DNA of 64,000 nt from Eledone cirrhosa (GCA_964016885.1 OZ024746.1:68572001-68636000); one strand, 5' to 3'; shown: positions 5,850-61,308, counted from the first letter of the stretch. Notes: a model not told the origin generated them from the letters alone. Numbers and translations: made by a program.

Positions 5850-6286
5850 GTAAATTTGTATTCCAATGTTACTAAGTAGTTGCATTGGATGGAGTCAACC
5901 GACGTCGGAGATTGCTCAACGTATAATAAAGTGTGTTTTAAAATCCGGAGAAAATATGGAGAAGAAGTTTTTGAAATTTGAAATGGAAATGCGGGTATAA
6001 AGAATTTATTAGGTAACAATTGTTTCTGTAGTGTATGGGTTACCTATACCTCGCTATTTGAATAATATAAAAATATTATCATAAACCGAAGGTACACTGT
6101 AAGCAGACACACCATGTCGTCAGACCTTTGTATTGGAATGATATGAAAATTACAGTGTACCTTCGGTTTATGATAATATTTTTATATTATTCAAATAGCG
6201 AGGTATAGGTAACCCATACACTATAGAAACAATTGTTACCTAATAAATTCTTTATACCCGCATTTCCATTTCAAAAACTTCTTCTC
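5845..6286 (-). mobile_element. Fold-back element FB1 (~140-bp arms 5959-6102/6150-6286 plus one-sided tail), Penelope-like pLTR derivative
   Basis: Near-perfect inverted repeat flanked by (TA)n; contains a hammerhead motif; unpaired tail 5845-5958. Confidence 0.8.
6011..6127 (-). ncRNA. Type I hammerhead ribozyme motif with ~90-nt stem II
   Basis: Minus strand aggt-CTGACGA-[long stem tggtgtgt/atacacta, gtaccttcg/cgaggtat, ataatat/atattat]-GAAAC-AATT-GTT-acct; cleavage triplet is GUU. Confidence 0.65.
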
Positions 6287-12237: not shown

Positions 12238-12523
12238 CCAGGGAGTGTAACGTGCAGTTACTGTAGATGAGCACTCGGTGTTTAAATTCACGTCTGTAAT
12301 GAGGTGTAGAGCTAAATAGTGTGTAAATATAATAATACAAGGACAATTTGTTATGTCACTACGTTTATTGATATGTCATTACCACGGCAGAGGTCTGATG
12401 AGGTTTTGATTCCAGAGTCAGGCCAGATGGATATGGATCGAACCATGAGCTGATCAATAGTTAAACGCGCATCACCTATCAATAAACGTAATGAAGACAT
12501 AACAAATCGTCTTTGTTATTATA
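12238..12523. mobile_element. Fold-back element FB2 (arms ~12329-12373/12477-12523, tail 12238-12328)
   Basis: Imperfect inverted repeat between (TA)n tracts; hammerhead in loop followed by AATAAA. Confidence 0.7.
12391..12477 (+). ncRNA. Degenerate type I hammerhead with bulged, extended stem II
   Basis: aggt-CTGATGA-ggttttgat-tc-cagag-tcaggcc...gctga-tcaatagt-TAAAC-GCGC-ATC-acct (GAAA changed to TAAA, GTC to ATC). Confidence 0.6.
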
Positions 12524-12524
12524 C

Positions 12525-12581
<57 letters not shown>

Positions 12582-13085
12582 CACAAATTATTGTTAAATA
12601 GAATATAATGTGGGTCATTGGCTCATTAAGCTAATATTGGCACCTGAAATAAAACTTTAGTGAAAGTAATTGGTTTGTCCCTTCTGCCACACACTAGCTG
12701 ATGAATGAAAACTAACTGAAGTATAAAATTAAGAAAATATTCTGATATATCTAGATGTCTATAATTTAAAAATAACATGAGCAGGTTCCAGGCAGAATGC
12801 CATTTGGCAGTTATGAGGAAAATTTGCCTGAGAGGAACTGATTAACTGATTTTTTCTATACTTTTGGACAGGATTTTCTTCTTATTGATTCAGGACATAG
12901 ATTCTGTGTGTGTGCAATGTTGATATCCATAACAATTTCCCTTAAGTTTCATTTTAGCAAGGCTAACTTAAATATTTTCTATTAGCAATATGACTTAAAT
13001 CAGGCATGGGCAGCATTTTTCTAGCAGTGAGCCTATGAGATAAATCTGGTCATATGCTACTAAAGAAAAATAATTTTATATAATA

Positions 13086-13268
13086 ATTGTTTCTATTTTG
13101 GGCACAAGGCCAGCAATTACGCAGTGCATTACTGGTACTTTATTTTATCAACCCCGTAAGGATGAAAGGCAAAGGTAACCTCGACGGGATTTGATCTCAG
13201 ACCGTAAAGGGACGTAACTATGCTAGAAAGCATGGTGTCCAACACTCTACCAATACTGCCAATCCACT
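13086..13268 (-). mobile_element. SINE family A
   Basis: Near full-length match to the family A consensus. Confidence 0.9.
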
Positions 13269-13271
13269 TAT

Positions 13272-13392
13272 AATAATGAAAATTATTATGTAGTGCTCAG
13301 GTGCACTACAATTCATCGAAGGTGCATGTATAGTACATAAATTAATGTACAAATATCAGGAAAGTGAACAGTGTATTAGTCATGGTATACAT
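13272..13392 (-). mobile_element. CR1/L2-group LINE 3' tail fragment
   Basis: Matches 1402-1525. Confidence 0.8.
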
Positions 13393-14207
13393 AATGTTAA
13401 GAAAACTTATATGTAAATACAGAGTACACCATGTAGTACAATCAAGAGAAAAAAATGAATAAGTGCAAGAGAAAAACAAACAAAACTGCTCAAATTAACA
13501 GTCAGACCAAAAGAGTTTGTTATTAAAATTGTAGTAAAATGTTATCATGGTTTGTGGATGAGGGCATGGCCACATGGTTACATAAGGGATTCATTTCACA
13601 TCATGAGTTCCTCAGTTCGATTCTATTGTGTTTGCAAGCATCTTTTACTATAACCTGAAATCAACCCAAGCCTAGTAAATGAAACTGTGATGAATTATAA
13701 CAACAATTCAAAGGCTCTACTTTGTCTCATATTCACACTGATTCAACTTGAGAATTATCATAATGATAAATGTATCTGTACATAAGTTTAAACAGAACAC
13801 CAGATTGGCAGCTAGGTCTCATCCATTTACAATTGAAATTCTTAAATGTAATCACAAATTCTAGTTAGTTTCTTCCTTCTCATACCTTTCCTATGAAATA
13901 AACTTCCAGTTTCTTGCTTTCGTGACATCTACAATTTGCAAATATTCAAAAGCAACACCAATCATTATCTTCTTTCTCCTTGAATTATATTTTTTCTGTC
14001 TTTTCCTTCTCCCTTCTCAGTAACCTTTTGCACTTTAGCGGCTGCTTGGGGTGAGCAAAAGAAAAATCAATGAATATTCAGGAAATTATGTGTTAATTTA
14101 AGAAGTAAATTAAACAAACAACTGAATGCTCGTCATTGAAACTGATGGAGGATCAATAACTTTTTTTCTCTTTTGTTTATATAATCATAATGATAGCCAT
14201 GCAGAAA

Positions 14208-14554
14208 TCTATATATAAATTTGAGCGACTTCCATCCATCCTTCCGTCACACAATGTGTGTGTGTGTGTGTTTGTTTGAATATATGTGTGTGGAAGAGGA
14301 TGGTAAAAAAACTATAGCAAAACAGCGGATGGTGTTCCATTTGCTATGCCGTGTGTATGATGTATACGTGTATGTGTTTGGGTGAATGTATATGTATTTG
14401 TATGAAAGTATGTCTGTGAGTGTGTATTTTTGTAAGTGTGTTTGTGAATGCGCATTTATATTTATATACTCGTACATATAAATGTATGCTTATGTAGATA
14501 TACACACGTGCACACATATACACATACGCATCAGTATGTTGAAAAATATTCTAG
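14208..14554 (+). mobile_element. Helitron-like non-autonomous element with internal (GT)n/(CA)n
   Basis: A|TCTATATATAAA 5' end and CTAG|T 3' end; second copy at 51998-52314. Confidence 0.55.
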
Positions 14555-14914
14555 TACATAAAAAGCCACATGCTGTACAAATGTCACAGATTGATCACAA
14601 CTGGCTCTAGATTATTCTCTGATCTCCATATCATGAACTTCATTTGAATTCTAAACAGCTTCTTACTTAAAGGATTTTCAACATTGTAAAAAAGTTCCCA
14701 GATGAACATAAAGTCTGGTTAACAGCAGGCAGAAAATACTTTGGAAATATGCCAAAGTCCTTTCTACTCTAACAAGGAATAATAATATCTAATATTGATG
14801 TAAATTTTATATATCATCATCATCATCATCATCATTATTTTACGTCTGTCTTTCTATGGTGAGATGCGTTGGACAGGATGTTAAAGACCAAGTCAGCACT
14901 TATTCCAAGTTACA

Positions 14915-14929
14915 CAGACACATATACAT

Positions 14930-14962
<33 letters not shown>

Positions 14963-15270
14963 CACACAACACACACACACATATTTATATACACACACAT
15001 ATATATATATATACACATATATATATACACACATACATATATATATATACACATATATATATACACACATACATATATATATATATACACATATATATAT
15101 ATATACACATATATATATATATACACATACATATATATATATCTACACATATATATATATACATATACACACACACACACATATATATATATACACACAA
15201 CACACACACACACATATATATATATACACATATATATATACACACATACATATATATATATATACACATC
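14915..15270. repeat. Compound (AT)n/(AC)n microsatellite
   Basis: Directly visible. Confidence 0.95.
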
Positions 15271-15721
15271 ACACACTTACACCTCTCCAAGACAATGTCA
15301 CTGGACCGAGACCTTTGGCGCTACTCAGTAACAGAGAAGACCCGCCTTGCCAGTAGGCATCTCTAACAAAATACACCCCGTCCCGCCACCACCCCCACTC
15401 CATCCACACCACCCCGTTCTATGTAAAGTTATGTTGGTGCCGCGCCATCCAGGCCGAAACAAATGAGATCGTGTAGGTGTCACGACAAAAAAACACACAG
15501 TCCATGCTGTAATGTGGCCGTGTAGGCAACACGGTAAAAACCTCCCAGACCCACACTGTAAATGTGGTTGGTGTTAGGAAGGGCATCCAACTGTAGAAAA
15601 CCTGCCAGACAGTCCTATGCGAGCAAGACAATCACTCTTGCCTCAAGTGGGACTACCCCCATCCAAACCCATGCAAGCGTGGAACACGGACGTTAAACGT
15701 TGATGATGATGATGATGATGA
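15271..15721 (+). mobile_element. RTE LINE 3' fragment with (GAT)n tail
   Basis: [17 protein letters not shown] plus 3' UTR matching the 18181 copy. Confidence 0.9.
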
Positions 15722-16084
15722 TATATACACACATACATATATATATATATACACATTCATATACACATATATATACACACACACACATATACACATATAC
15801 ATATACACACACACATATATACACACACACATATATATACACACACACACATATATATATACACACACACACATATATATACACACACACACATATATAT
15901 ATACACACACACATACACACACACACACACATATATATATACACACACATACATACATATATACACACACATATATATATATATACACACACACATACAT
16001 ATATACACACATATATATATATATACACACACACACATATATATACACACACATATATATATATACACACACACACACATATAT

Positions 16085-16137
<53 letters not shown>

Positions 16138-16142
16138 CACAC

Positions 16143-16173
<31 letters not shown>

Positions 16174-16472
16174 TATACACACACACACACATACACACAC
16201 ACACACATATATATATACACACACAAACATATATATACACGCACACATATATACACACACACACACACATATATACACACACACACATATATATATATAT
16301 ACACACACACATACATATATACACACACACACATATATATATATACACACACACATAGACACACATACACACACATATATATACACACACACATATATAC
16401 ACACACACATATATATACACACACACACACATATATACACACACACATATATATACGCACACACATATATAT

Positions 16473-16503
<31 letters not shown>

Positions 16504-16504
16504 T

Positions 16505-16545
<41 letters not shown>

Positions 16546-16566
16546 CACACACATACGCACACACAT

Positions 16567-16610
<44 letters not shown>
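15722..16610. repeat. ~890-bp compound (AT)n/(AC)n microsatellite
   Basis: Directly visible; source of the ~300-aa spurious ORFs. Confidence 0.97.
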
Positions 16611-16938
16611 GGTTGAAGAGAATGTAAGTGAACACAAAATTTGAGTTATTTACAGCTGATGTCAAGTTCTTCAGATGTTTGATAATCTAATCAAAATATT
16701 GAAAGCATTGAAAACAAATTTAATCAAGGAGTTTCTTTTCTCTTTTCTCAGATAAAGAGAAATATAAATATATGTTACTTTACTGTGGTTTTGTTGGATG
16801 ATAACTCCAAGTAGAAATAACTTTGTTTTCCCTGATCAAATATTTCAATGTAGGTGTATCTGTGTTTGCCTGTGTGCCATGCAAATGTGTGTATGATGTT
16901 CCATGTGTGTGAATCTCTGTGTGTCTATATGTGCCTCT

Positions 16939-16939
<1 letters not shown>

Positions 16940-16998
<59 letters not shown>

Positions 16999-17072
16999 AT
17001 GTGTGTGTGTGTATGTGTACATGTATGTTCCTCTCTCTGTCTATGTGTGTGGGTGTGTGTGTGTGTGTGTGT
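16940..17072. repeat. (GT)n microsatellite
   Basis: Directly visible. Confidence 0.95.
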
Positions 17073-17578
17073 ATCAGAGGGAGAAAGAGACAGAGAGTGA
17101 CAAATTGTATATATTTTCTAATGTTATATTTCCACAATGTAATATTCTCATTGTATTCTTAAGCAAATCAAATTTTCTCAGTTTTCAAATCCCACATTTC
17201 CCTCTCTTGAACAAATAATTCTTTAGCTTAACCAAACTTTTCTACAGACCACCACACTATCTGTATTATTACCAATAGCACTGTGGTTTTTTTAGCAAAC
17301 TAGACTAACAGCCATATCTGATTTTTCTCATTTGAGAGATCAGATATGTTAATGTTTTGTTTTAACAACTGTTGCAAATGAACAACTTCAAGAAAACAGG
17401 AGAAACATATGTAGAGAGTAAATTCCAGAGAAGTGATAATTTGGAAAGAAAATACTGGGTGTAATTGTTAAATAAGCTATAGTTTAGGAGTGCACATCAC
17501 TGAGGGACTTATTTTTTAATATATATGTTTATTTTATCTTTAATTTTTATTCTTTAACACTAAATCATCAAAAATTAT

Positions 17579-18161
17579 ATATTTATTAAAATAACAGATT
17601 AAAGTTTAAGCAAAGAATCGCTGCTTTGACCCTTAACGGGATCTTCTGAAACTAACAAAGTCAATCTGTGAACGCAGAAGTGAATATTTAAAAAAATTGC
17701 GTGCAATTGTTCTCCCCGCTCCACATATGACGTATTATCTTTGTTCCATTCATTGCCAGAGAACGTCTCTATGAACTACCTAATAGAATATTAGTCTACG
17801 ACTTCTTTCATACCATAAACGTGGTTTTGTCTTTGCATGTAATTGTTTTTCACCGCTCCAAATAATGACGTATTATATTCGTTTTTTCCCGTTCTTTGAC
17901 AGGGAACATTTCCACGAACCAAAGTATCGTCTTCCTGTCTTCCTCCGGTTGCAACGCTTTTTGAAATATTCACTTCTGTGTTCACAGATTAACTTTGTTA
18001 GCTTCAGAAGATCCCGTTAAGGGTAAAAGCAGCGATTCTTTGCTTAAACTTTAATCTGTTATTTTAATAAATATTTGCTCTATGGTTCTTATATATTTGA
18101 TATATATTTATCCTTATCGAGCCCTCTTTGGATTTTAGTCTTCAAATTTATTATTATTACT
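17579..18161 (+). mobile_element. Fold-back element FB3 (~120-bp arms 17579-17705/17958-18074, tail to 18161)
   Basis: atttattaaaataacagattaaagtttaagcaaagaatcgctgc... is inverted at 18030-18073; tail ends in (TA)n; weak hammerhead-like cagaaga-tccc-gttaa-gggt-aaaa in the arm. Confidence 0.75.
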
Positions 18162-18180
18162 ATATATATATATATATTAC

Positions 18181-18781
18181 TCGAGAGAAGACTACGTTGG
18201 TATGGTCATGTGATGCGCATGAAAGACGACAGCTGTATAAAAAAGTACAGGGCGATAAAAATAGACGGTAGCCACAGAGTAGGCAGACCCAGAAAAACCT
18301 GGAACGACTTGATAAATTCTGACCTCACACACTTACACCTCTCCAAGACAATGTCACTGGACCGAGATCTTTGGCGCTACACAGTAATACAGAAGACCCG
18401 CAAAGCGAAACCTAGTCAGTAGGCACCTCTAACAAAAATACACCCCCCGTTCCACTACCCCCCACCCCCATCCACACCACCCCTTACAATGTAAAGTTAT
18501 GTTGATACCACAACATCCAGTCCGAAATAAATGAGGTCGTGTAGGTGTCACGACAAAAAACACACAGTCCACACTGTAATGTGGCCGTGTAGGTAACACA
18601 GTAAAAACCTCCCAGTACACACTGTAAACGTGGTTGGTGTTAGGAAGGGCATCCAGCCGTAGAAAACTCGCCAGACAGTTCTATACGAGCAAGACAACCA
18701 ATCTTGCCTCAAGTGGGAAAATTCCCGTCCAAACCCATGCAAGCGTGGAAAATGGACGTTAAACGATGATGATGATGATGA
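18181..18781 (+). mobile_element. RTE LINE 3' fragment
   Basis: RRLRWYGHVMRM...GRPRKTW...DRDLWR then 3' UTR and (GAT)n tail, set in (TA)n. Confidence 0.93.
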
Positions 18782-18806
18782 TATATATATATATATAATT
18801 TATTAT

Positions 18807-18993
18807 GGTGGATTGGCAGTATTGGTAGAGGGTCGGATGCCATGCTTTGATGCATAGAGTTCTGGCCCTTTCCAATCTGAGTTCAAATCCCTCCGAAGTT
18901 AACTTTGCCTTTCATCCTTACGGGGTCTATAAAATAAAGTACCAGTAATGCACTGGGTAATTGCTGGCCTTGTGCCAAAAGTAGAAACAATTA
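18807..18993 (+). mobile_element. SINE family A
   Basis: Consensus match. Confidence 0.9.
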
Positions 18994-19809
18994 TTTATCA
19001 TTAACATTCATGCATAATTATTTCTTTTTAATTTTACACAAATTTTTTAAGAGAAGGGCCTCATATTTCAAATAGCTTAGGGTCTCAGCAGGTGAAAGTC
19101 TGGCTCTGTGTGTGACCTTGAAATTGAACATATTATGGGAGATAAGAAAAGAAGAGCTAAGTGAGCCAAGAAGTAGTGAGTGGAGTTGACACAAGGCTAG
19201 CCAGCTATAGGGAGCAGAGCTCATTGAAGTTTTGGTACAAAAAACGAGATGAGACAGCATGTTGGTGAACCAGGGATTGAAGTGTGTTTTTGAGAGAGAT
19301 TATGCCAATCTTCGGACTTCTAATTGTGTTCTTCTCATGTTTAAGGAGGGATATGATACTATAATGTACACATATCAAGCCTAGAATATGTACAGAAATT
19401 GTATGTTTTTGATGTTGAAGGAGACAAGCTCAACATGACTCCATAAGGGGAGTTTTTAAGATCTCTGTTCATGGAGTTAATGCAGATTTTATGTGATGTC
19501 TAGGAATACTTAAGCTTGGTTCAGGTAGTGGAGTGCTAAGCCAGCAACATATTAAGTTTACTACACAAGAACAGGCAATGTCCATTTTACAGACTTCCTC
19601 AACAAACTATTTCTTCTTTTCTACATCTTTCAAACAATAAAAAAAAGACATATATATATATATATACATATATACAGAGAGAGAGAGATACACAGACACA
19701 GAAGGTTTGATGACCAGAGATATACAGTGAAACAACAATTATCTTCCCCTTTCATATGTACATGTGTATCTATATATCTATGTGTACATGTGTGTGTGTT
19801 TTTTTTATT

Positions 19810-19990
19810 AAGTACTAGATCAACCCTGATCAGTAGGCCTATGATCAAAAGCATTCTGATTGGGTTTATCCTGTTTTATTTAAGAGTATATCTAGGACAA
19901 CATTATCTATTTTAAATAGTTGGCTGCATGATGAGAAGAATTATCTGCTATTTCAAGTCGGTCTTGAGAACACATAAAAGCTCCCCAATA
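19810..19990 (+). mobile_element. Old interspersed repeat (copies also near 8430, 22130, 22360, 23880, 34045, 43280, 53440, 59280, 59640)
   Basis: Recurring ccctgat.agcagacctatgatcaaag.cattcc...gatttggctgctatttctagcagg...ccac.tagaggctccc pattern. Confidence 0.55.
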
Positions 19991-20417
19991 GCTCCTGATT
20001 ATGTCGTCAAATTATGTTTGTAAATTTGTGTGTAAGAGAAGACATTAAGGGTGTGTGTAGTGATTAAACATCTTGGGAGACAAAGAGGAAAACATTGTTA
20101 AAGGAATCTATATATTGCTCATCTGTTTACTTGGAGAAGTAGAAGCATGCCATTTGTAAAACTTGTCACGACAATAGGAGAGAAAACCAATTAAAATGAA
20201 ATTGCTCTTCTTTGAAGAAAACATTTTTCTGTTAACAATTTTCTAGCATCCATATTTTCAAAGGAATTGGAAATATTTATTGTAAAAAAATATTTAGATA
20301 TTAGTACTGCTTTTTAAGTTGACAGCTGCTAGCAACTCTTGGTATGACTGAAACATATCAAATATGGTTCTTGTTGACTATTAATAAACCTTTTCATGTC
20401 TACAGATGTTGACAGTT

Positions 20418-20597
20418 TAGAGTACTATAGTAGAACATTACCATATAGAATAGAGTACTATAGTAGAACATTACTATATAGAATAGAGTACTATAGTAGA
20501 ACATTACTATATAGATTAGAGTACTATAGTACTATAGTAGAACATTACTATATAGATTAGAGTACTATAGTACTACAGTAGAACATTACTATATAGA
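20418..20597. repeat. ~33-41 bp tandem repeat x5 containing palindrome tactatagta
   Basis: Unit agagtactatagtagaacattactatatagaat. Confidence 0.9.
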
Positions 20598-21039
20598 TAG
20601 AACTATTTTGTCTATAAACTCTTCAATCAAGAGTTTAGCCTTTATAGCTACAACTTGTCGCAGCACTTAGGATGGACTTTGTATGTGTGTGTGAGTGAGC
20701 ATGTGAGAGTGTGTGAGAGTGAGTATGTGAGGGAAAGACTGTGTGGGTGTGTGTGTGAGTATGTGAGGGTGAGTGTGTGTGTGTGTGGGAGTAAATGAGT
20801 GTATATGTGAATCATAAAGCTGTTGGTGAAAACAGAAGTAGCTGCTATCAAATTCAAAGTATTCAATACAAAACATATAAAGAGTGAAACAATTATTTAT
20901 TTCAAAATGATTGACATTCATGCTTTGATGAAGGTAATTCATTAATATTTTGTAAAATGTCAAGTCATAAGGAAACAAAGATGAAAGTTTGGTAGAATTC
21001 CATTAAAATGGTCACCAAACAAAAAAGAAAGAAAATAAT

Positions 21040-21440
21040 AATTGTTTCTACTTTTGGCCAGCAATTTGAAGAGAAATGATTGATTACATCAATCCCAGTG
21101 TGTTACTGGTACTTTATTTTATTGATTTTGTAAGAAAGAAAGACAAAGTTAACCTTGGTGGGATTTGAACTCAGAACATAGAAAGTCATAACTAAATACC
21201 ACAAAGAATTTTGTCTGATGCTCTACCGAGAATGCCAGACCACAACCATAAAATAATAATAATAATTGTTTCTACTTTAAGCACAAGGTCAGCAATTATT
21301 TTAAGATTAAATCGACCCCAGTGCATTACTGGTGCTTTATTTTATCGACCTCAGAAGGATGAAAGGCAAAGTTAATCTTGGCGGGATTTTATCTCAGACT
21401 GGCGTCCGACTCTCTACCAATACTGCCAATCCTCCGCCCT
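21040..21440 (-). mobile_element. Two diverged SINE A-related copies
   Basis: Central domain and ggatttgaactcag; second copy internally deleted. Confidence 0.75.
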
Positions 21441-23643
21441 CATAATAATAATAATAATAAACAAAACAAAGAAACATAGCAATGCACACAATCTGGAGAA
21501 AGCAATATATGGATTTCAAACCATTAACCCTTTCATTACCAAACTGCCTGAAACTACTTCTGGTTCTATGAAACAAAACTTCCATTTTAAAGGATTCATA
21601 TTTAAATTAAATTTAAAGCAACGAATTGGCAGAGTCAGATAGAATGTCAGATAGAATGCTTTGCATTATTCATTCTGGTTCTACACTCTTTAAGTTCAAA
21701 TCCCACCGAGGTCAAATTTGCCTTTCATCTTTTCAGGTTGATAAAAAAAAAGTACCAGTCTACTACTGGGGGTCAATTCTGCCTCTATATCTCTTTTTCG
21801 CTTCCATTCTCTCACTTTCTATCCTTCTCTGGACCCCTACAACTCCATCAGGAGCTACGGGACAATCCCATACCATTTAAATTAAAATTTAAAATTTGAG
21901 AGAATAAATTTAAATTTTCAAACATATATAAGAACGATATGTTAATTTACTACGTTACTAATAAAATAATGAATTTATTGATAGTTTTAGTAAATTCCTT
22001 TAGATTTTTCATTAATTAATTGAAATAAAGTATGTTTCATTAAAAATATTGTAATGAAAAGGTTAATAATAGTGAAAGAGAAAAACTAATGGTCGACAAA
22101 CCAAGAACAATAAACAGTTTATGAGTTGATGTACTAAAAATAGCAGTTAAATGTCCCTCAAATCACAAATTATTATTTTAATTAAGGAAGTACTTCTGAC
22201 AAATTTGTCCCTGATACAGAAAAATACATGATTGCCAATGCTGGAAGGCGTTTGATCATAGGTCTGCTCAATTCAGGATGATCTGACACTAATCAATGAC
22301 TATATATCTATATATTTATATGTTAGATATGTGTGTATATGTTTGTGTGTGCTGTTGTTATTGTCTATTAGCCCTAAAACAACTTTGACTAAGCAGACAA
22401 ATAAACAAAGACATTCTAGTTATAACCATCCATTCCATCCTGTTTTGGACATTGTGTATCTAGGACAATATTATACGACATATCCCTTACTTTTCAAGAT
22501 ATTAGTGTTTAATTTGAAAGAAATTTGGCTGCTATTTCTAACAGGTCAGAAGACTATATAGAGGCTCTCTCGTTAGCTCATGTCATTCCGTATTCCTGAC
22601 CAACTTAGATAAATAACATATTAAGAAAACAAATAAAGAGAAAAGAGGATTGGCCAAAGGATTATGTTCTAAGAGTTTACAGTTGTGCATTGTTCATGGT
22701 GTATTGAATAATTGATGTCAATATTTTGGCAGAAGCCCCAAAACTACTAAAGAACTAATATATAAACATAAATATACACTGCAGTGAATAAATATAGTAT
22801 TACATACAAATGAATACACAAATATCATCATCACTACCACTACCACAACCACCACCACTACCACCATCATCATCATTGTTTTAATGTCTGCTTTTCCTGC
22901 TAACAAGGGTTAGATGGGTCTATATAGAGTAAGTCAGTACTGAAGCAGGGCTACTGACTGTATTTATACAGATATAACTTTGTCATATATAAGCTCTGAG
23001 ATGTATTGTTTATGAAGACATAAACAAGCATCACTGCTTGCTTTAAATGATATCAACATGATGATGCACTGAGATAGATATTCATACACTCACACAGATA
23101 CACATAAATATATAATGGACTTCCTTCCTCACAGTTTTGATCAGCTAAATTCACTCACAAAATATTGGTTGGCCTGAGAGTATAGTAGAAGACACCTGCT
23201 CGAAGTAACTTGCAGTGTGATCAAACCCATATCACATGACTGTAAAAGAAATTTCTTAACCACAAGACCATGCCTGCATCTAGATGTAACCTCACCTTCA
23301 TTTCCAATATGAATAGAAATCATCACATATTTTGTATGCTGTATGATTATATAATTTTCCTCATACACCAAATTACCAAATCTAAATCACTCTAATTAAA
23401 TGAGCTTTAATAGAAAGAGAGAAAAATTAGAATGTTGCAGGTTACTCCAGATTAGACATATGTGTGTCACTAATCTTGGCATATTTATCTGAGTTGCTAG
23501 GCAACAAAGAAATTATATATTTATTCTGAATATTGAAATAATCTATGTTTCTAAATATATCAATGCTGAGGAAACTCAACAAAGTTGATATGATTATTTC
23601 AGATATAAAACCAACATGTAGTTTAGAACTAGGTTTATCTTAA

Positions 23644-23863
23644 CCCTTTAGCATTTAAACCGGCCATATCTGGCCAGAATTCTCTCACCTCTTTCTGTTC
23701 AAACTGGCTGTAACTGACCACTCATACTGGTGTTAAGGTACTGTTCTCAAAATAAATAATATCAAAATCTCATAGATTCGATATTATATGAGATATTATG
23801 TGAGGTAAAGATTTTACCATGAAAATACAATAGTATATATAGAGTAATGTAAATGCTAAAGGG
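23644..23863 (+). mobile_element. piggyBac-type MITE family 1
   Basis: TTAA|CCCTTTAGCATTTA...TAAATGCTAAAGGG|TTAA: 14-bp TIR and TTAA TSD. Confidence 0.9.
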
Positions 23864-24207
23864 TTAATGAAGCAAACCTATATCAGAAAAGGTGCTTCAT
23901 CTAGGACCATTCCATCTTTTATTTAGTTATAGCTTAGAGTAATCAAGGAGTACAATAATCAATGTGTTCTTCCCATTTGAAGATGGGAGGGTGTTTGATT
24001 CGAAGAAGATTTAGTTGCTATTTCTAGTAAGTTGAGCAATTCTATAGAGGCTCCCTCTTTTGCTGAGGATACAACCTAACAATTATTTAACAACAATGAT
24101 AGAAATACTTTCATACATAAAATTCATAAGCTCTGGAATGTATTACATTCTTCATAAAAGATGATACACACACACACAGAAACACACACACACACACACA
24201 TATATAT

Positions 24208-24255
<48 letters not shown>

Positions 24256-24259
<4 letters not shown>

Positions 24260-24965
24260 AGCAGTGTGCAGGAGAGGAGATTCTATTGGTATGAACATGT
24301 TATGCATATGAAAGATGACAGCTGTTTAAAAAGGTGCAAGCCACTCAAAGTTGATGGAAGCTATAGTGTAGGAAAACTTGGGAGGAGGTAATAAAAGCTG
24401 ACCTTGCACAATTGCACCTCTCAAACGTGATGACACAGGATTGAGATTTCTGGCATTATGCAGTAATACATATAGGGCGGTGAATTGGCAGTATCGGTAG
24501 AGGGTTGGACGCCATGTTTTCTACCATAGTTACGTCCCTTTTCGGTCTGAGTTCAAATCCCGCCGAGGTTAACTTTGCCTTTCATCCTTAAGGGGTCGAT
24601 AAAATAAAGTACCAGTAATGTACTGGGTAATTGCTGGCCTTGTGCCTAAAGTAGAAACAATTATGCAGTAATACAGAAGACCCACTACTTGGGTTGAAGC
24701 ATACATCTTGTATGCACCACTTTCCCTTACCTTCCCCTCTCCCATCCTAAGACTCCACCCACGTCCTAACACCCCAACCATCATTCAGATCCCTACCCCA
24801 AATCTGATCTACCTCTCCAATAACCATGCACCTGTCCCACTCCATCCCCAGTCCATACAGTAAAGTAGTTCTGTTGGTGACACAACAAAACGTGCCATCC
24901 ACACTGTAAAGTGGTCACATAGATGTCACAACAAAAAGCACCTACAAAAAGACCACCTTTAAAGG
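24256..24965 (+). mobile_element. Diverged RTE LINE 3' fragment interrupted by SINE A
   Basis: RRFYWYEHVMHMKDDSC...; SINE A inserted at 24475-24663. Confidence 0.8.
24475..24663 (+). mobile_element. SINE family A with target-site duplication
   Basis: ttatgcagtaataca on both sides. Confidence 0.92.
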
Positions 24966-25233
24966 TGCAATGCCTCCCTATCATGAACTCTCAAGATGAA
25001 GAAGGCATGTTCTAGCATAGCATGACCAAGACCCAATGTATTTATTTACAAGGGGTAGCTGACTCTGATAAGCTGACTATGAAGGAACGATGCTAGAGCT
25101 GTGAAACCTTGCATGCATTAATTTCAACTCTTATTAATAACAGCATTGTTTTGTTGTTGTTTTTTTCTAGGGACTACATTGAAAAATAAACCTCATTTGG
25201 TCATTCCATGAGAGTATCTTAGTTAAATAATAA

Positions 25234-25481
25234 TAATTGTTTCTACTTTTGGCACAGGGCTAGCAAAAAATACTTTATTTTATCAACCCCGTAAGGATGA
25301 AAGGCAAAGTTAACTTCAGCGGGATTTGAACTCATGCCATTAAGTAATAATAATAATGAAATTATTGTGTACAGTGCTCAGGTGCACTACAACTCATCAA
25401 AGGTGCATGTAAAGTACATAGAATAATATCCAAATGTCAGGAAAGTGAACAGTGTATGAGTCATGACATACATGTGTGCGT
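25234..25481 (-). mobile_element. Partial SINE A abutting CR1/L2 3' tail
   Basis: 25234-25335 matches SINE A; 25345-25481 matches 1395-1533. Confidence 0.8.
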
Positions 25482-26507
25482 ATAAACTATTCAGCCAACC
25501 CTCATATATATTATAATTGTGTGTATTTATGTGTCTATTTGTTTGACATTGTTGATAGTTACGTTTGTTTCTTCCATATAAACAGAAATGCCTCCATTCT
25601 GTAGTTAGATCTGTAAAAGTCCATACCTTGCTTAACAAACAACTGGAAGTTGACAGCAGGAGAGGCAACTAGCCATTGATTTCTGCTTCAACAATCACAT
25701 CCAACATATTCCAGCATAGAAAAGAGACATAAAAAGATTGATGATGATGATGATGATGATGATGATACACACACACACACACACACAATACATGCACGCA
25801 AAGAAAATACACACACAATGCACACAAACACAAGGCTCACACACACACACACATACACACTGTACACATATACGCACACATACCGACAATAGACACACAT
25901 AGATAATATAGACACAATGCACATACACACACACCGCATACACAATGCACACATACACACACAATAAACACATACACAAGCACACACACTACACCTAGAG
26001 TGACACACACACACAATCCACACATGTACAATCCACACACACAATCCACACATGTACAATACACACACACAATCCACACATGTACAATCCACACCCACAA
26101 TACACACAAGTTATATTGTTAAGAATGAGATATGGAGACCTTCTTTACAATTCTTATCTTTTTCTAATCCAATTCTGTTTTTATTTGCCATACAGTTATT
26201 ATATATAACTAACATCAAACAGATATTGCAGCTGTAAGCCACAATATTTACACAACAAACAATATATATCATTTGTGCTTTTCATACATTTTAGCAATAT
26301 CTACATCTTACTTATATTTTAACTCTATGTAATGGCATTTATCTTTTCTCTCTCTCTCTCTCTCTTCTTTTATGTTTCTCCTATTTTCACATCCCATTTC
26401 TCTTCACTCTTCTTTTTCAAAATTCCTAATACACACACATACATCCGATTATACAAACATACTTACATATATACATACATAAAAACATACATACATACAT
26501 ACATACA

Positions 26508-26813
26508 TGATGATGGCTGCCCCTCGTTATCGAGTATGGCCATTGCACGATATACCATCATAAATAATTATTAATTCATTCTATCGTGCAATGCCTGTGC
26601 GTGGAGATATTTTTTAAAGTGAGGAATGCACTGAGCCAATCCCACTCTCTGAGCGACAGTAGCTATAACCCGAAAAGAAGAAAAGATCAACATCATCGGT
26701 AACTACTGAGCTGCAGGTTTTATATCAGAGTTATCCCAGTTTCCTGAGTTGCCTTCTCCTAGAAGAATGCCCTGACAAAGGCTAGGGGGTCCTTCACTCC
26801 CAGTGGTTTAACC
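26508..26813 (-). mobile_element. Non-autonomous RTE-related element D (5'-truncated copy)
   Basis: Reverse complement of 31652-31948; RTE 5'UTR-like ctagcctttgtcagggc...ggagaaggcaactc...aaacc and a short cat-repeat tail, set in (CATA)n. Confidence 0.7.
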
Positions 26814-26825
26814 TACATACATACA

Positions 26826-26860
<35 letters not shown>

Positions 26861-27218
26861 GTGTGTGTGTGTGTGTGTGTGTATTTGTGTGCATATATAT
26901 ATATATATTCTTGAAGAAACAGGGAGCTGTGTGATTACTTGATAAAGTGTATTTAAAAATAAGAGGAAAGCACAAACGGGGGACATTCCCATCATCAGTT
27001 ATCTGCTGGAGATGACAGACATTTCAAGGCATTAAAGACAATATGTCTAGCTCCAGTGCATCAATAACTATTGGAAGTTATAGGGCGGGGAAAGGAGAGA
27101 AAGAAAAATATATAGCAGAAGGGAAAAAAAAGAAGAAAAAAAATGCAGAGAACATACCGAAAAAGAGGGAAACATGAAAAGCATGTGCATGTATATAAGT
27201 AACCATATATATATATAT

Positions 27219-27556
27219 GGAGGCACATGGCTTAGTGGTTAGAGCATTGGCCTTGCAATCGAAAGGTTGTGAGTTCAATTCTCAGACAGGGTGATGTGTT
27301 GTTTCCTTGAGCAAGACACTTTATTTCACATTACTCCAGTTTACTCAGCTGTAGAAATGAGATGATAGGGACTGGGGTCCCTATCGTTCCACTGTAAAGT
27401 GGTCGTGGAGGTGACACGGCAAAAAAGCACCCAGCACTCACTGTAAATGAGGTTGGTGTTAGGAAGGGCATCCAGCTGTAGAAATCAAGCCAGAATCAGT
27501 TCCCGTCCCACCCTTGCAAGCAGGGAAAAGCGGACGTAAAATGATGATGATGATGA
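27219..27556 (+). mobile_element. SINE family B
   Basis: Full length, flanked by (TA)n. Confidence 0.93.
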
Positions 27557-27680
27557 TATATATATATATATATATACACACACACGTAGCGAAATTTGTC
27601 CACGCCTTGAACTTTGGGTGATACCTAGAGATCAAATTTTAGGTCACCAAATTTATTGTGTTAACAAATTCATGCGTGGG

Positions 27681-28390
27681 CTGTCCCCTCAGGTGGGGGA
27701 CAGGAAGTGACAGCTATATACAGACCATGTACAAGCCATTTCACACAGAGACATCGAAGTGATAGGATATACAACTAACTATGTAAGGATTACTGCTATC
27801 AACAGACCCCTTTGGTCTACCAACAGACCCCAGGAAGTCTACAGATACACACACACATAGATTGGAACCTCTATTACTACAGACCATGTACAAGCCACAG
27901 TGGTCTACAAACTATTACAGACCATTCAGAGATATACAAACCATATCTTACTAACTAACGGTCTAAGAATTACTACCACGGATTCCAAATTCAAACAACA
28001 GCAACAATTATCTGTAACTCGCTGTTGTAACACCAACAACAAACTAGAACACCCTCACATTAACAACAAAATAATTTTGTCAATCTTTGCAACTTATGGT
28101 AACTTGTTTGTTGTACCTTTTAATTGATTCACATGAAGTAAACTATATATAACCAAATCATTTATTCTTATATTCTTTATATTATATTCATGTTATCTCT
28201 TATCTAACAACATTGCTATTATCATAACAACTAAATAACCAACATATCTATTCTATACATATTACCATACTATCCATTATATAACTATTTCTTACTTATT
28301 CTTACCCTTCGTTAAATTGTCACTGTGTGGAATGGCTTGTACATGGTTTGTATATAGCTGTCACTTCCTGTCCCCCACCTGAGGAGACAG
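27681..28390. mobile_element. 710-bp element with ~73-bp terminal inverted repeats
   Basis: ctgtcccctcaggtgggggacaggaagtgacagctatatacagaccatgtacaagcc (27681-27753) is inverted at 28318-28390. Confidence 0.75.
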
Positions 28391-28396
28391 TCCCGC

Positions 28397-28680
28397 CAAC
28401 CTCATTTACAGTGAGTGTTGGGTGCTTTTTTTCTGTGGCGCCTACACATCCACTTTACAGAGTGGGCTGGGTGCTTTTTTGCCGTGGCACCTCCACGACC
28501 ACTTTGCAGTGGAATGATATGGACCCCAGTCCCTACCATCATTTCTACAGCTGAGTAAACTGGAGCAATGTGAAATAAAGTGTCTTGCTCAAGGAAACAA
28601 CACATCACCCGGTCTGAGAATTGAACTCACAACCTTTCGATTGCAAGCCCAATGCTCTAACCACTAAGCCATGTGCCTTC
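28397..28680 (-). mobile_element. SINE family B variant (3' part missing, internal duplication)
   Basis: Head at 28680; two gggtgcttttt blocks. Confidence 0.88.
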
Positions 28681-28693
28681 ATATATATATATA

Positions 28694-29099
28694 GTAGATA
28701 TGTGTGCAACTGTAGTTACAGGTGGTTCGTTGGTTAAAGCACTCAATACTGTTACACGGTTCCATCTCATGTAGGGGTTATACTTCAGTGTATTCCAGGG
28801 TTAAGTTGGCTGTAATGTGCAGTGTGTACAAGTAGGTAGGAACATAGTCAAGGTTGTACCATAAATGAATTTTATTGTATATGACAATTGTCTCAATATC
28901 GATCAGCCCAGGATTCAATCAAAATGTTCAGGGCCTGACTCTGTACCGACATCTCATCAGATATGCGTTCATAGGTGCAGAACACATTCTAACAGTTAGA
29001 AAGTGTTCTGCACCTACGAACGCATTTGCAATTGATATTGAAACAATTGTCATATACAATAAAGTTCATTTATGGTACAACCTTGACTGTGTTCCTACT

Positions 29100-37027: not shown

Positions 37028-37098
37028 TATTTTATTATGCGCATTTCAAAAACAAATATCATCATGGGATGATATTTGCGTTCTCATCAGATAAAATA
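37028..37098 (-). ncRNA. Type I hammerhead (left arm of FB6)
   Basis: tattttat-CTGATGA-gaacgcaaatatcatc-ccat-gatgatatttgttttt-GAAA-TGCGCA-TA-ataaaata. Confidence 0.8.
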
Positions 37099-60974: not shown

Positions 60975-61308
60975 TCATCATCATCATCATTTCATTTTAC
61001 GTCCACTTTTCCCTGCTTGCAAGGGTGGGACGGGAACTGATTCTAGCTTGATTTCTACAGCTGGATGCCCTTCCTAACACCAACCTCATTTACAGTGAGT
61101 GCTGGGTGCTTTTTTGCCGTGGCACCTCCACGACAAAATGATAGGGACCCCAGTCCCTATAATCTCATTTCTACAGCTGAGTAAACTGGAGCAACGTGAA
61201 ATAAAGTGTCTTGCTAAAGGAATCAACACATCACCCGGTCTCTGAGAATTGAACTCACAACCTTTCGATTGCAAGGCCAATGCTCTAACCACTAAGCCAT
61301 GTGCCTCC
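60975..61308 (-). mobile_element. SINE family B
   Basis: Consensus match with small indels. Confidence 0.92.

Follow-up and report, generated by a model that had tools for sequence, protein, structure and literature searches.

A predicted conserved internal loop in the long stem II of hammerhead ribozymes from Hydra-type Penelope-like retroelements

Introduction

The window investigated in this study, a stretch of 64,000 nucleotides (nt) from Eledone cirrhosa (GCA_964016885.1, OZ024746.1:68572001-68636000), contains two type I hammerhead ribozymes that share a segment inside stem II, in the following termed the module. This raises the question of what the module is, to which element it belongs and which process might have kept it constant. 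A sequence-only reading of the window had described both hammerheads as otherwise unrelated and the module as a one-sided CAGAG bulge with either a tertiary or a protein-binding role. Our analysis identifies the two hammerheads as decayed terminal-repeat fragments from two families of Hydra-type Penelope-like retroelements and the module as a real conserved RNA feature of this known kind of element, which is itself a new variant. Its best-supported predicted fold is an irregular helix around a 2x1 internal loop, G[AG]U/A[G]C with the unpaired bases in brackets, instead of a CAGAG bulge.

Two long-armed hammerheads in the window

The positions previously assigned to both type I hammerheads are borne out, as are the differences between their stems I and III. 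The window contains the 12-mer CAGAGTCAGGCC in exactly two places, 12413-12424 (+) and 28932-28943 (-), the return strand GCTGATC(A/G)ATA is present in both hammerheads, and stem II, described as about 60 nt long, measures 60 nt in hammerhead A and 59 nt in hammerhead B. The features of both copies are as follows:

12391-12477, plus strand: hammerhead A (family A), with stem I at 12391-12394/12474-12477, the core at 12395-12401 and stem II at 12402-12461
Plus strand, 3' part of hammerhead A: altered GAAA box at 12462-12465, palindromic stem III at 12465-12472, would-be cleavage after 12473
12413-12422, plus strand: module 5' strand of A, with G12415 predicted to close the 2x1 loop from below, A12416-G12417 to be unpaired and U12418 to close it from above
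12420, plus strand: A12420 within the module of hammerhead A, a position of CpG decay
12443-12452, plus strand: module 3' strand of A, with a predicted A12448-U12418 pair, G12449 as predicted single loop base and a predicted C12450-G12415 pair
28879-28964, minus strand: hammerhead B (family B), with the core at 28960-28954 and stem II at 28953-28895
Minus strand, 3' part of hammerhead B: altered GAAA box at 28894-28891, palindromic stem III, would-be cleavage after 28883
28934-28943, minus strand: module 5' strand of B
28904-28913, minus strand: module 3' strand of B, with two departures from the family consensus, one of them at the loop-closing A

Both copies are short and decayed and, as judged from the known hammerhead core, probably inactive, since each is altered in the catalytic GAAA box. 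Compared to consensuses built from the 29 nearest relatives of each window copy, hammerhead A differs in 13 of 84 positions, five of them of CpG type, and hammerhead B in 10, four of them of CpG type, in both cases including the change in the GAAA box. The consensus core of family A reads CCGACGA, from which the CTGATGA of the window copy was most likely derived by two CpG decays. The TCAGG found in both copies is, by similar reasoning, most likely the result of independent CpG decay of TCGGG instead of a family state, because in both families TCG outnumbers the other forms, followed by TCA and TTG, a pattern typical of CpG decay. In family A, TCG, TCA and TTG account for 13, 11 and 3 of 28 copies picked by similarity, and TCG for 20 of 29 picked by upstream sequence, while the respective numbers in family B are 7, 6 and 2 of 19; as a genuine family state, TCA is confined to C, D and E (13 of 16 copies in D). 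The two hammerheads are also less foreign to each other than had been assumed. Along the entire 3' strand, the consensuses of their families agree in 28 of 31 nt, they additionally share CAGAGTCGGGCC, and both families carry the same downstream tail hairpin and remnants of a Hydra-type endonuclease upstream.

Families of module hammerheads in the genome

All genome counts refer to a single microsatellite-rich animal genome of 3.0 Gb, with reversed patterns serving as controls. A genome search for combinations of core and module, which had been suggested together with the initial description, returned numbers far above chance, with 266 matches for the core followed by part of the 12-mer (control 0), 765 for the core, the GAGCTG 3' strand and GAAA (control 3) and 6,531 exact matches for the module alone (control 0). 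Each of the first 30 module matches can be read as a hammerhead element, where an exact GAAA is found behind 27, an exact core before 17 and both in 14, the rest being mutated or cut by inversion; an inverted arm accompanies 19 of the 30.

Among 200 copies gathered with a fuzzy module pattern, clustering defined 11 groups, of which the nine with at least four members were used and two pairs were excluded together with 26 singletons. When the nine family consensuses are compared, 16 of the 20 module positions prove invariant, as opposed to 1/8, 2/9, 0/7, 2/7, 1/12, 0/4 and 1/6 in neighbouring segments, a figure that the pattern-based collection makes partly circular, whereas sets picked by upstream sequence are free of this circularity. 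The families conform to the hammerhead core CYGANGA, GAAA and UH with a closing stem I. Their stem II spans 58-63 nt and their stems III are palindromes with GCGC, AATT or ATAT loops flanked by AC and GT, in which pair 86-89 covaries. The core, which is broken in both window copies, is intact in 25 of 36 copies of family D, 12 of 15 of E, 9 of 10 of C, 26 of 59 of A and 7 of 17 of B. Family D is present in three contig runs of one sample.

Two further groups of copies were encountered in the same material. In a subfamily of A2 (L332, L333, L343; about 1480 on the matched strand), several copies contain the core CCGTCGA, with U at the normally invariant A6. L125, L128 and L129 are old, divergent long-armed copies that have retained GAGCTG and little of the 5' strand.

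Predicted structure of the module arm

Consensus folding, for which the earlier clustering of 193 copies into nine families was used, results in one architecture in all nine folded consensuses. A covarying foot of 8-9 base pairs (bp) is followed by a 5' bulge of 1-3 nt, the pairs CAG/CUG and the 2x1 loop AG/G, above which UC/GA, a bulged pyrimidine and RGG/CCY lead into a variable hairpin. Applied to 29 real copies together with stems I and III, this fold pairs 80.2% of cells and accounts for 76 double changes compared to 36 in shuffles (0/500), a statistic that is inflated by kinship among the copies. Covariation and genome counts thus bear out the claim of a conserved structural module that resides within covarying stems and recurs in the genome. 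Two observations count against the proposed fold, namely that the module's own pairs are nearly invariant within the nine-family group, where only column pair 37-64 varies (A-U 13, G-U 8, G-C 6), and that the sole helix obtained by RNAalifold on the 29 copies follows the register of the sequence-only reading (5 pairs, -1.97 kcal/mol, none compensatory).

This alternative register, in which GUCRG would pair with CUGAU of the module to leave a large one-sided purine-rich bulge, finds 97% of its cells paired in the RNAalifold helix, and the families B2 and B3, which break one pair of our preferred fold, break none of it. Nevertheless, we consider it very unlikely. Its pairing probability, including that of TCAG with CTGA, is close to 0 in each of the nine single-family ensembles, and the CAGAG bulge geometry is thus probably wrong. 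Moreover, it shows no compensatory change, the change in family D pairs the respective A-position in the lower stem instead (column 27-72), and the unrelated arms of the groups P, Z and W described below keep the 2x1 loop without such a complement.

A third pairing concerns the ribozyme as a whole. In the nascent transcript, the 5' strand of the module could bind stem I and the catalytic core and so hold the ribozyme inactive. The predicted duplex is strong in families A (-16.4 kcal/mol) and E (-13.8 kcal/mol) and it dominates the nascent-prefix ensembles of A, E and A4 and the fold of window copy A. However, it is weak in B and B2 (-4.8 kcal/mol) and absent from the prefix ensembles of B, B2, D and A2, its covariation is no better than that of shuffles (203/500) and the pairing is unavailable in P, Z and W, for which reasons we give such an off-switch hardly any credence. 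A comparison by eye with the definitions of the K-turn, the tRNA B-box, the selenocysteine insertion sequence (SECIS), a coding frame and the downstream promoter element/initiator (DPE/Inr) failed in each case on spacing or on the change in family D.

Recurrence of the loop in unrelated arms

A motif-blind scan of 374 sequences (1.64 Mb) with 190 hammerhead matches detected five entries or families with long arms outside the module families, family Z, L238/L303, L154 and L209, L093/L094 and the poorly folding single copy L018. The loop is found in four of these five, with L018 as the exception, and in none of the eight listed arms of 26-48 nt. It was drawn directly by RNAfold for Z, L154 and L094, while for L238 and L209 RNAfold drew a wider loop in which the 2x1 form was placed by eye and then confirmed on family majorities. 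The loop-bearing arms outside the module group are 78-91 nt long and sequence-unrelated. Family Z, which is young and has relatives with a Hydra-type open reading frame (ORF) about 420 nt upstream, is represented in the window:

5998-6133, minus strand: family Z hammerhead, the third with a long arm, whose stem II of 90 nt shows no sequence relationship to the module; inverted partial copy at 6150-6285
About 6099-6096, minus strand: predicted 2x1 loop of Z, C[AG]U/A[G]G

When run on the window, a covariance model of the 29 module copies scores A and B with about 80 bits each, by construction, and also weakly matches this hammerhead.

A pattern for the L154/L238 type (P group) matches the genome 4,506 times (control 19), a figure to be read as a number and not as independent conservation, since the pattern was built around the loop. 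Among the first 30, an exact core is found upstream in 16 and a Hydra-type endonuclease in 5. Family W (L093 8189 (-) and L094 3985 (+)) carries the loop G[AA]U/A[G]C in an arm of 91-93 nt. A comparison of 16 arms (nine from the module group, five from P, Z and W) defines a unit, 5'-S A R U-3'/5'-A G S-3', that is conserved across distant families. The loop is AG/G in 15 arms and AA/G in one, the U-A pair above is found in 16/16 and the pair below is G-C in 15 and C-G in Z. The flanking pairs covary across groups, with G-C/C-G and then A-U/C-G/U-A below the loop and, above it, the fixed U-A followed by C-G/G-U/A-U/G-C. Arms of different groups do not align, and an alignment by sequence fails to register the loop across groups. 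In a structure-keeping shuffle, the widened loop arises by chance in 1.7-3.7% of arms and its restricted AG form in 0.6-1.7%, and the loop is found on none of nine antisense strands. If P is treated as a single lineage, the loop recurred three times in four tries, which corresponds to a probability of about 1e-4, a value obtained with a definition that was widened after Z and W had been seen.

The loop resides at a distance up the arm that depends on the group, 13-15, 18 or 30-33 nt. This spacing bears on the question of whether it might engage in an RNA-RNA contact that stabilises the active fold, either a tertiary interaction with stem I or loop I or one between the arms of a hammerhead dimer. 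In the nine-family group, its distance from the core is fixed at 13-15 nt, the palindromic stem III is typical of dimer-active hammerheads and AGU/AG resembles the core of the bulged-G motif (PMC8450098). Across groups, however, the positions are more than one helical turn apart, no consistent complement in loop I was seen by eye and canonical loop-loop contacts are found 4-6 bp from the core (PMC4209133). We thus regard such a contact as quite unlikely. Of the two roles initially suggested for the module, the tertiary one is therefore weakened by a loop-core distance of 13-33 nt, whereas the variable spacing favours the other, an autonomous protein-binding motif.

A plain arm is found in another type I hammerhead family of the window, whose core starts at 37090 (-) and 37397 (+) form an inverted head-to-head pair with a 36-nt stem II without the loop and tandem copies of a unit of about 40 nt in between.

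The host element

The element that owns the module hammerheads was traced by upstream walks independent of the module. In family D, the hammerhead is found in 18 of 19 extended loci, with a same-strand endonuclease remnant upstream in six of them (L152, L153, L156, L160, L164, L168) and an inverted one in several others; it resides 1.5-2.0 kb behind the Hydra-type remnant in L152, L153, L156, L160 and L168, and L160 and L168 form a single 3.4-kb alignment that runs from the ORF through the ribozyme. Of 30 family A loci, 22 contain it; remnants were detected upstream of it in L291, L292, L293, L295, L301 and L304, and its distance from the same-strand remnant is about 1.0-1.4 kb in L291, L292 and L293. 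A similar distance of about 1.0-1.4 kb separates both features in L311, the one ORF-linked locus of family B, with an unbroken untranslated region (UTR). The hammerhead thus closes a 3' UTR of 0.4-1.8 kb, which in family D extends over 1.7-1.8 kb, just before AATAAA and the 3' ends of the insertions. The corresponding features of the window are:

12481-12486, plus strand: AATAAA behind hammerhead A (ATTAAA in family C), a likely polyadenylation signal
28871-28876, minus strand: AATAAA behind hammerhead B
28738-28750, minus strand: tail hairpin of the AGCAYNGAGTGCT type, 210 nt past the core start of B
12324-12379, minus strand: 3' end of element A, partially copied in inverted orientation (arms 12324-12379 versus 12471-12529)
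28963-29098, plus strand: inverted partial copies of element B, with a 68-nt arm at 29031-29098 that is 94% complementary to 28836-28903 and a 31-bp fold-back at 28963-29025

An inverted partial copy is found upstream of both window copies, and the one beside A conforms to the inverted truncated copies that commonly accompany Penelope-like insertions. Element A sits in a TA/TG microsatellite, and TA or TAT repeats follow 110-330 nt past the core start in 154 of 170 copies, in a genome that is itself microsatellite-rich. The tail hairpin AGCAYNGAGTGCT, which contains GAGU, is found in 41 of 170 copies and in eight of the nine module families, 131-219 nt past the core start.

The assignment to the Hydra type is reflected in the proteins. 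The C-terminal GIY-YIG endonuclease carries a CxCX5C linker in families D, P1, P2 and Z and a decayed form of it in A, while the remnant of B is too short to contain it. The remnants of A, D, P and Z show no CCHH and place CxxC and CxH beside the conserved E and N. DKT, in place of DKG, was seen in family Z, and an N-terminal reverse transcriptase (RT) was recovered for none of A, B and D. We use the label Hydra-type variant, since the short element (<3 kb) and the short-stem hammerhead, which are described as general rather than defining traits of the clade, are not observed here. Endonucleases of A, B and D are 38-44% identical, and their UTRs do not cross-align. In an endonuclease tree of 24 rows from this genome, a supported clade (100/99) unites the P families with Z, and its members are 25-40% identical to A, B and D. 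A Pfam search assigned no family to six of seven proteins, including every Hydra-type one.

These neighbourhoods address whether the module might have no function at all, with ancestry or template switching accounting for its presence in nine families and chance for the other arms. The nine families are indeed related and were gathered with a fuzzy module pattern, and a widened loop is expected by chance in 2-4% of arms. Against this, the module is present in copies chosen solely for their upstream sequence (22 of 30 in A and 18 of 19 in D), neighbouring segments have diverged, the UTRs of A, B and D are unalignable and at least three independent recurrences have a chance of about 1e-4. An absence of function thus appears highly improbable.

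Conservation could also operate at another level, with the module serving in the terminal repeat as an internal promoter element or as a splice acceptor (TTNCAG/AG). Promoters and, in some cases, introns are known from such repeats (PMC6765202, PMC4209133), YAG precedes the loop in most module families and many copies have their 5' ends 19-38 nt upstream of the core (in A 23 of 33 at -19 to -33, in D 8 of 13 at -26 to -38), which could mark where either transcription starts or reverse transcription stops. However, the module consists of two separate conserved strands whose flanks covary as base pairs, the spacing to the 5' end differs by about 18 nt between groups and B2 and B3 are without the pyrimidine tract, so that we find this explanation scarcely probable.

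Several candidate owners were rejected. Neptune-like elements, which emerged from a GIY-YIG search, own the module hammerhead in none of 20 long-ORF loci, and a module hammerhead near L047 is a separate insertion. The ORF located 1.2 kb before the L009/L170 copy is not its owner, because it carries a short hammerhead of its own, and an endonuclease 2.1 kb before L121 groups in the tree with Z instead of A and was not used. Other repeats were noted in the same loci and in the window. A further Penelope-like family (L156 8006-9262, L159 8613-9899, L299), which is often nested beside module elements, encodes an RT with GVSIAGD and YVDD and, C-terminally, a GIY-YIG domain, and has no Pfam match. 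tRNA-like heads at 28614-28671 (-), 27228-27285 (+) and 61242-61299 (-) probably belong to a tRNA-derived short interspersed nuclear element (SINE).

Discussion

The features described above may be understood if the loop, embedded in a stem II arm of 58-91 nt, were a docking site for the RT/endonuclease protein of the element itself, a function that we propose tentatively and with somewhat less than even confidence. This protein would bind the predicted loop on the RNA of its element, about 70-100 nt upstream of the start of copying, and binding would mark this RNA as template. It would also decide on the fate of the dimer-type ribozyme, which might either remain uncut to permit copying through it or fold and cut to split tandem transcripts. 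The two copies in the window would then be short, decayed and probably inactive products of such copying. The protein of the element is the nearest candidate, since the ends of insertions lie about 45-60 nt beyond the cleavage site and copying has to pass through an uncut ribozyme. A precedent is provided by the hammerhead of Poseidon, which cuts only with the protein of its element, whose uncut RNA is the template and where copying starts internally (PMC11167929). This assistance by a protein was shown in one study, which does not state where the protein binds.

In a more general form of this proposal, several Penelope-like lineages would have converted stem II into the scaffold of a protein-recognition loop that combines a grip on the template with a ribozyme switch and that was kept across proteins of only 25-46% identity, which we consider possible but rather doubtful. 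If true, it would provide this class of retroelements with its first RNA handle of defined sequence, with consequences for the open questions of why Penelope-like elements carry weak hammerheads and how a telomerase-related RT recognises RNA.

Several findings weigh against these proposals. In its exact form the loop recurs only in the P group, because its definition was widened post hoc from AG to AR and from G-C to G-C/C-G to include Z and W. The link of family B to its host relies on the single locus L311, the element that owns family W was not found in our search, and the endonuclease tree neither resolves one clade of loop-bearing families nor places the short-armed ones. In these short-armed Hydra families, no such loop is found within 200 nt of the ribozyme, neither in two copies of a very young family with intact ORFs nor in two of a second family, so that it is not required by every Hydra protein. 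A very young Hydra-type family of at least 150 copies (L171-L200), with 97-99% protein identity and open frames of up to 726 amino acids, contains a short hammerhead with a core beginning with CAGAAGA.

The same observations bear on an RNA-binding protein of the host, which could recognise the loop for export, stability or polyadenylation or to shield the long double-stranded arm from editing or dicing. One conserved host partner is easier to invoke for a loop that stays constant across element proteins that are only 25-46% identical, and the loop is found only where the arm is long, while short-armed families manage without it. In the one case described for a Penelope-like hammerhead, however, help came from the protein of the element (PMC11167929), and we consider a host protein unlikely. 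Irrespective of the identity of the partner, a three-base loop that is constant in arms of 60-90 nt across distant families offers a precise and mutable target for studies of binding, probing and cleavage.

Comparison with known systems

A comparison with Rfam, as had been advised for the module, revealed no hammerhead family (clan CL00010) that reaches its gathering score in the window and six loci, the best being a partial match to RF00163 with 17.4 bits against a threshold of 34. In a single genome, the number of hammerhead-bearing copies that these models miss owing to the length of the arm exceeds 11,000 (6,531 and 4,506 exact pattern matches). No description of long-armed Penelope hammerheads or of the 2x1 loop was found in the literature searched, although supplementary figures of an earlier survey (PMC4209133) may hold similar variants, and word searches, in which line breaks could hide matches, did not find the module in consensus files of Naiad, Chlamys and Hydra (PMC8557442). 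Matches of the module pattern in metagenomes (at least 117) and viral contigs (14), none of which has an exact core on both sides, were taken as chance.

Similarities to known RNA motifs are partial. At the level of sequence, A-G-U opposite A-G can be read as the purine pair, bulged G and U-A of the sarcin-ricin or bulged-G motif, for which a bulged A and GA variants have been reported, but its upper sheared A-G (trans Hoogsteen/sugar edge, tHS) and lower tSH pairs are replaced by covarying Watson-Crick pairs (PMC8450098). In a 4x4 register (AGUC/YGAG), the nine-family module matches G+1, G8, A9 and G10 of loop A of the hairpin ribozyme, although its position 11 is C in all nine families and other groups lose the pattern (PMC8216279). 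A loop B with helices 3 and 4 was not seen by inspection, and there is no Rfam hairpin match.

Among mobile elements, non-LTR (long terminal repeat) retrozymes contain tandem hammerhead repeats (10.64898/2026.07.22.740005), unlike the solo or inverted copies tied to coding UTRs described here. Poseidon from Anolis carolinensis shares with our model the terminal-repeat ribozyme, the downstream internal start of reverse transcription and protein-dependent cleavage, but it belongs to another clade, its ORF starts in stem II, it has no long arm and protein binding is not mapped to the ribozyme (PMC11167929). The minimal Penelope-like hammerheads, which are weak and of dimer type, are equally of type I, with a short helix I and a palindromic helix III that is predicted to require dimerisation, and they form many covariation-rich families of mostly solo or inverted copies; their helix II, for which the consulted part mentions no internal motif, contains 7-8 bp (PMC4209133), in contrast to the 58-63 nt of the module group. 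With the Hydra clade of C-terminal endonuclease-positive (EN+) Penelope-like elements, our families share CxCX5C, the absence of CCHH, CxxC/CxH near E and N, (TA)n targets, inverted truncated copies and a type I hammerhead near the 3' end with GUA, GUU or GUC sites and often with unpaired bases at the foot of stem II (PMC8557442). Whereas the Hydra rows of File S2 of that study list a stem II of 3-7 bp and a loop 2 of at most 10 nt (PMC8557442), the elements described here combine arms of 58-91 nt and a conserved internal loop with 3' UTRs of up to 1.8 kb.

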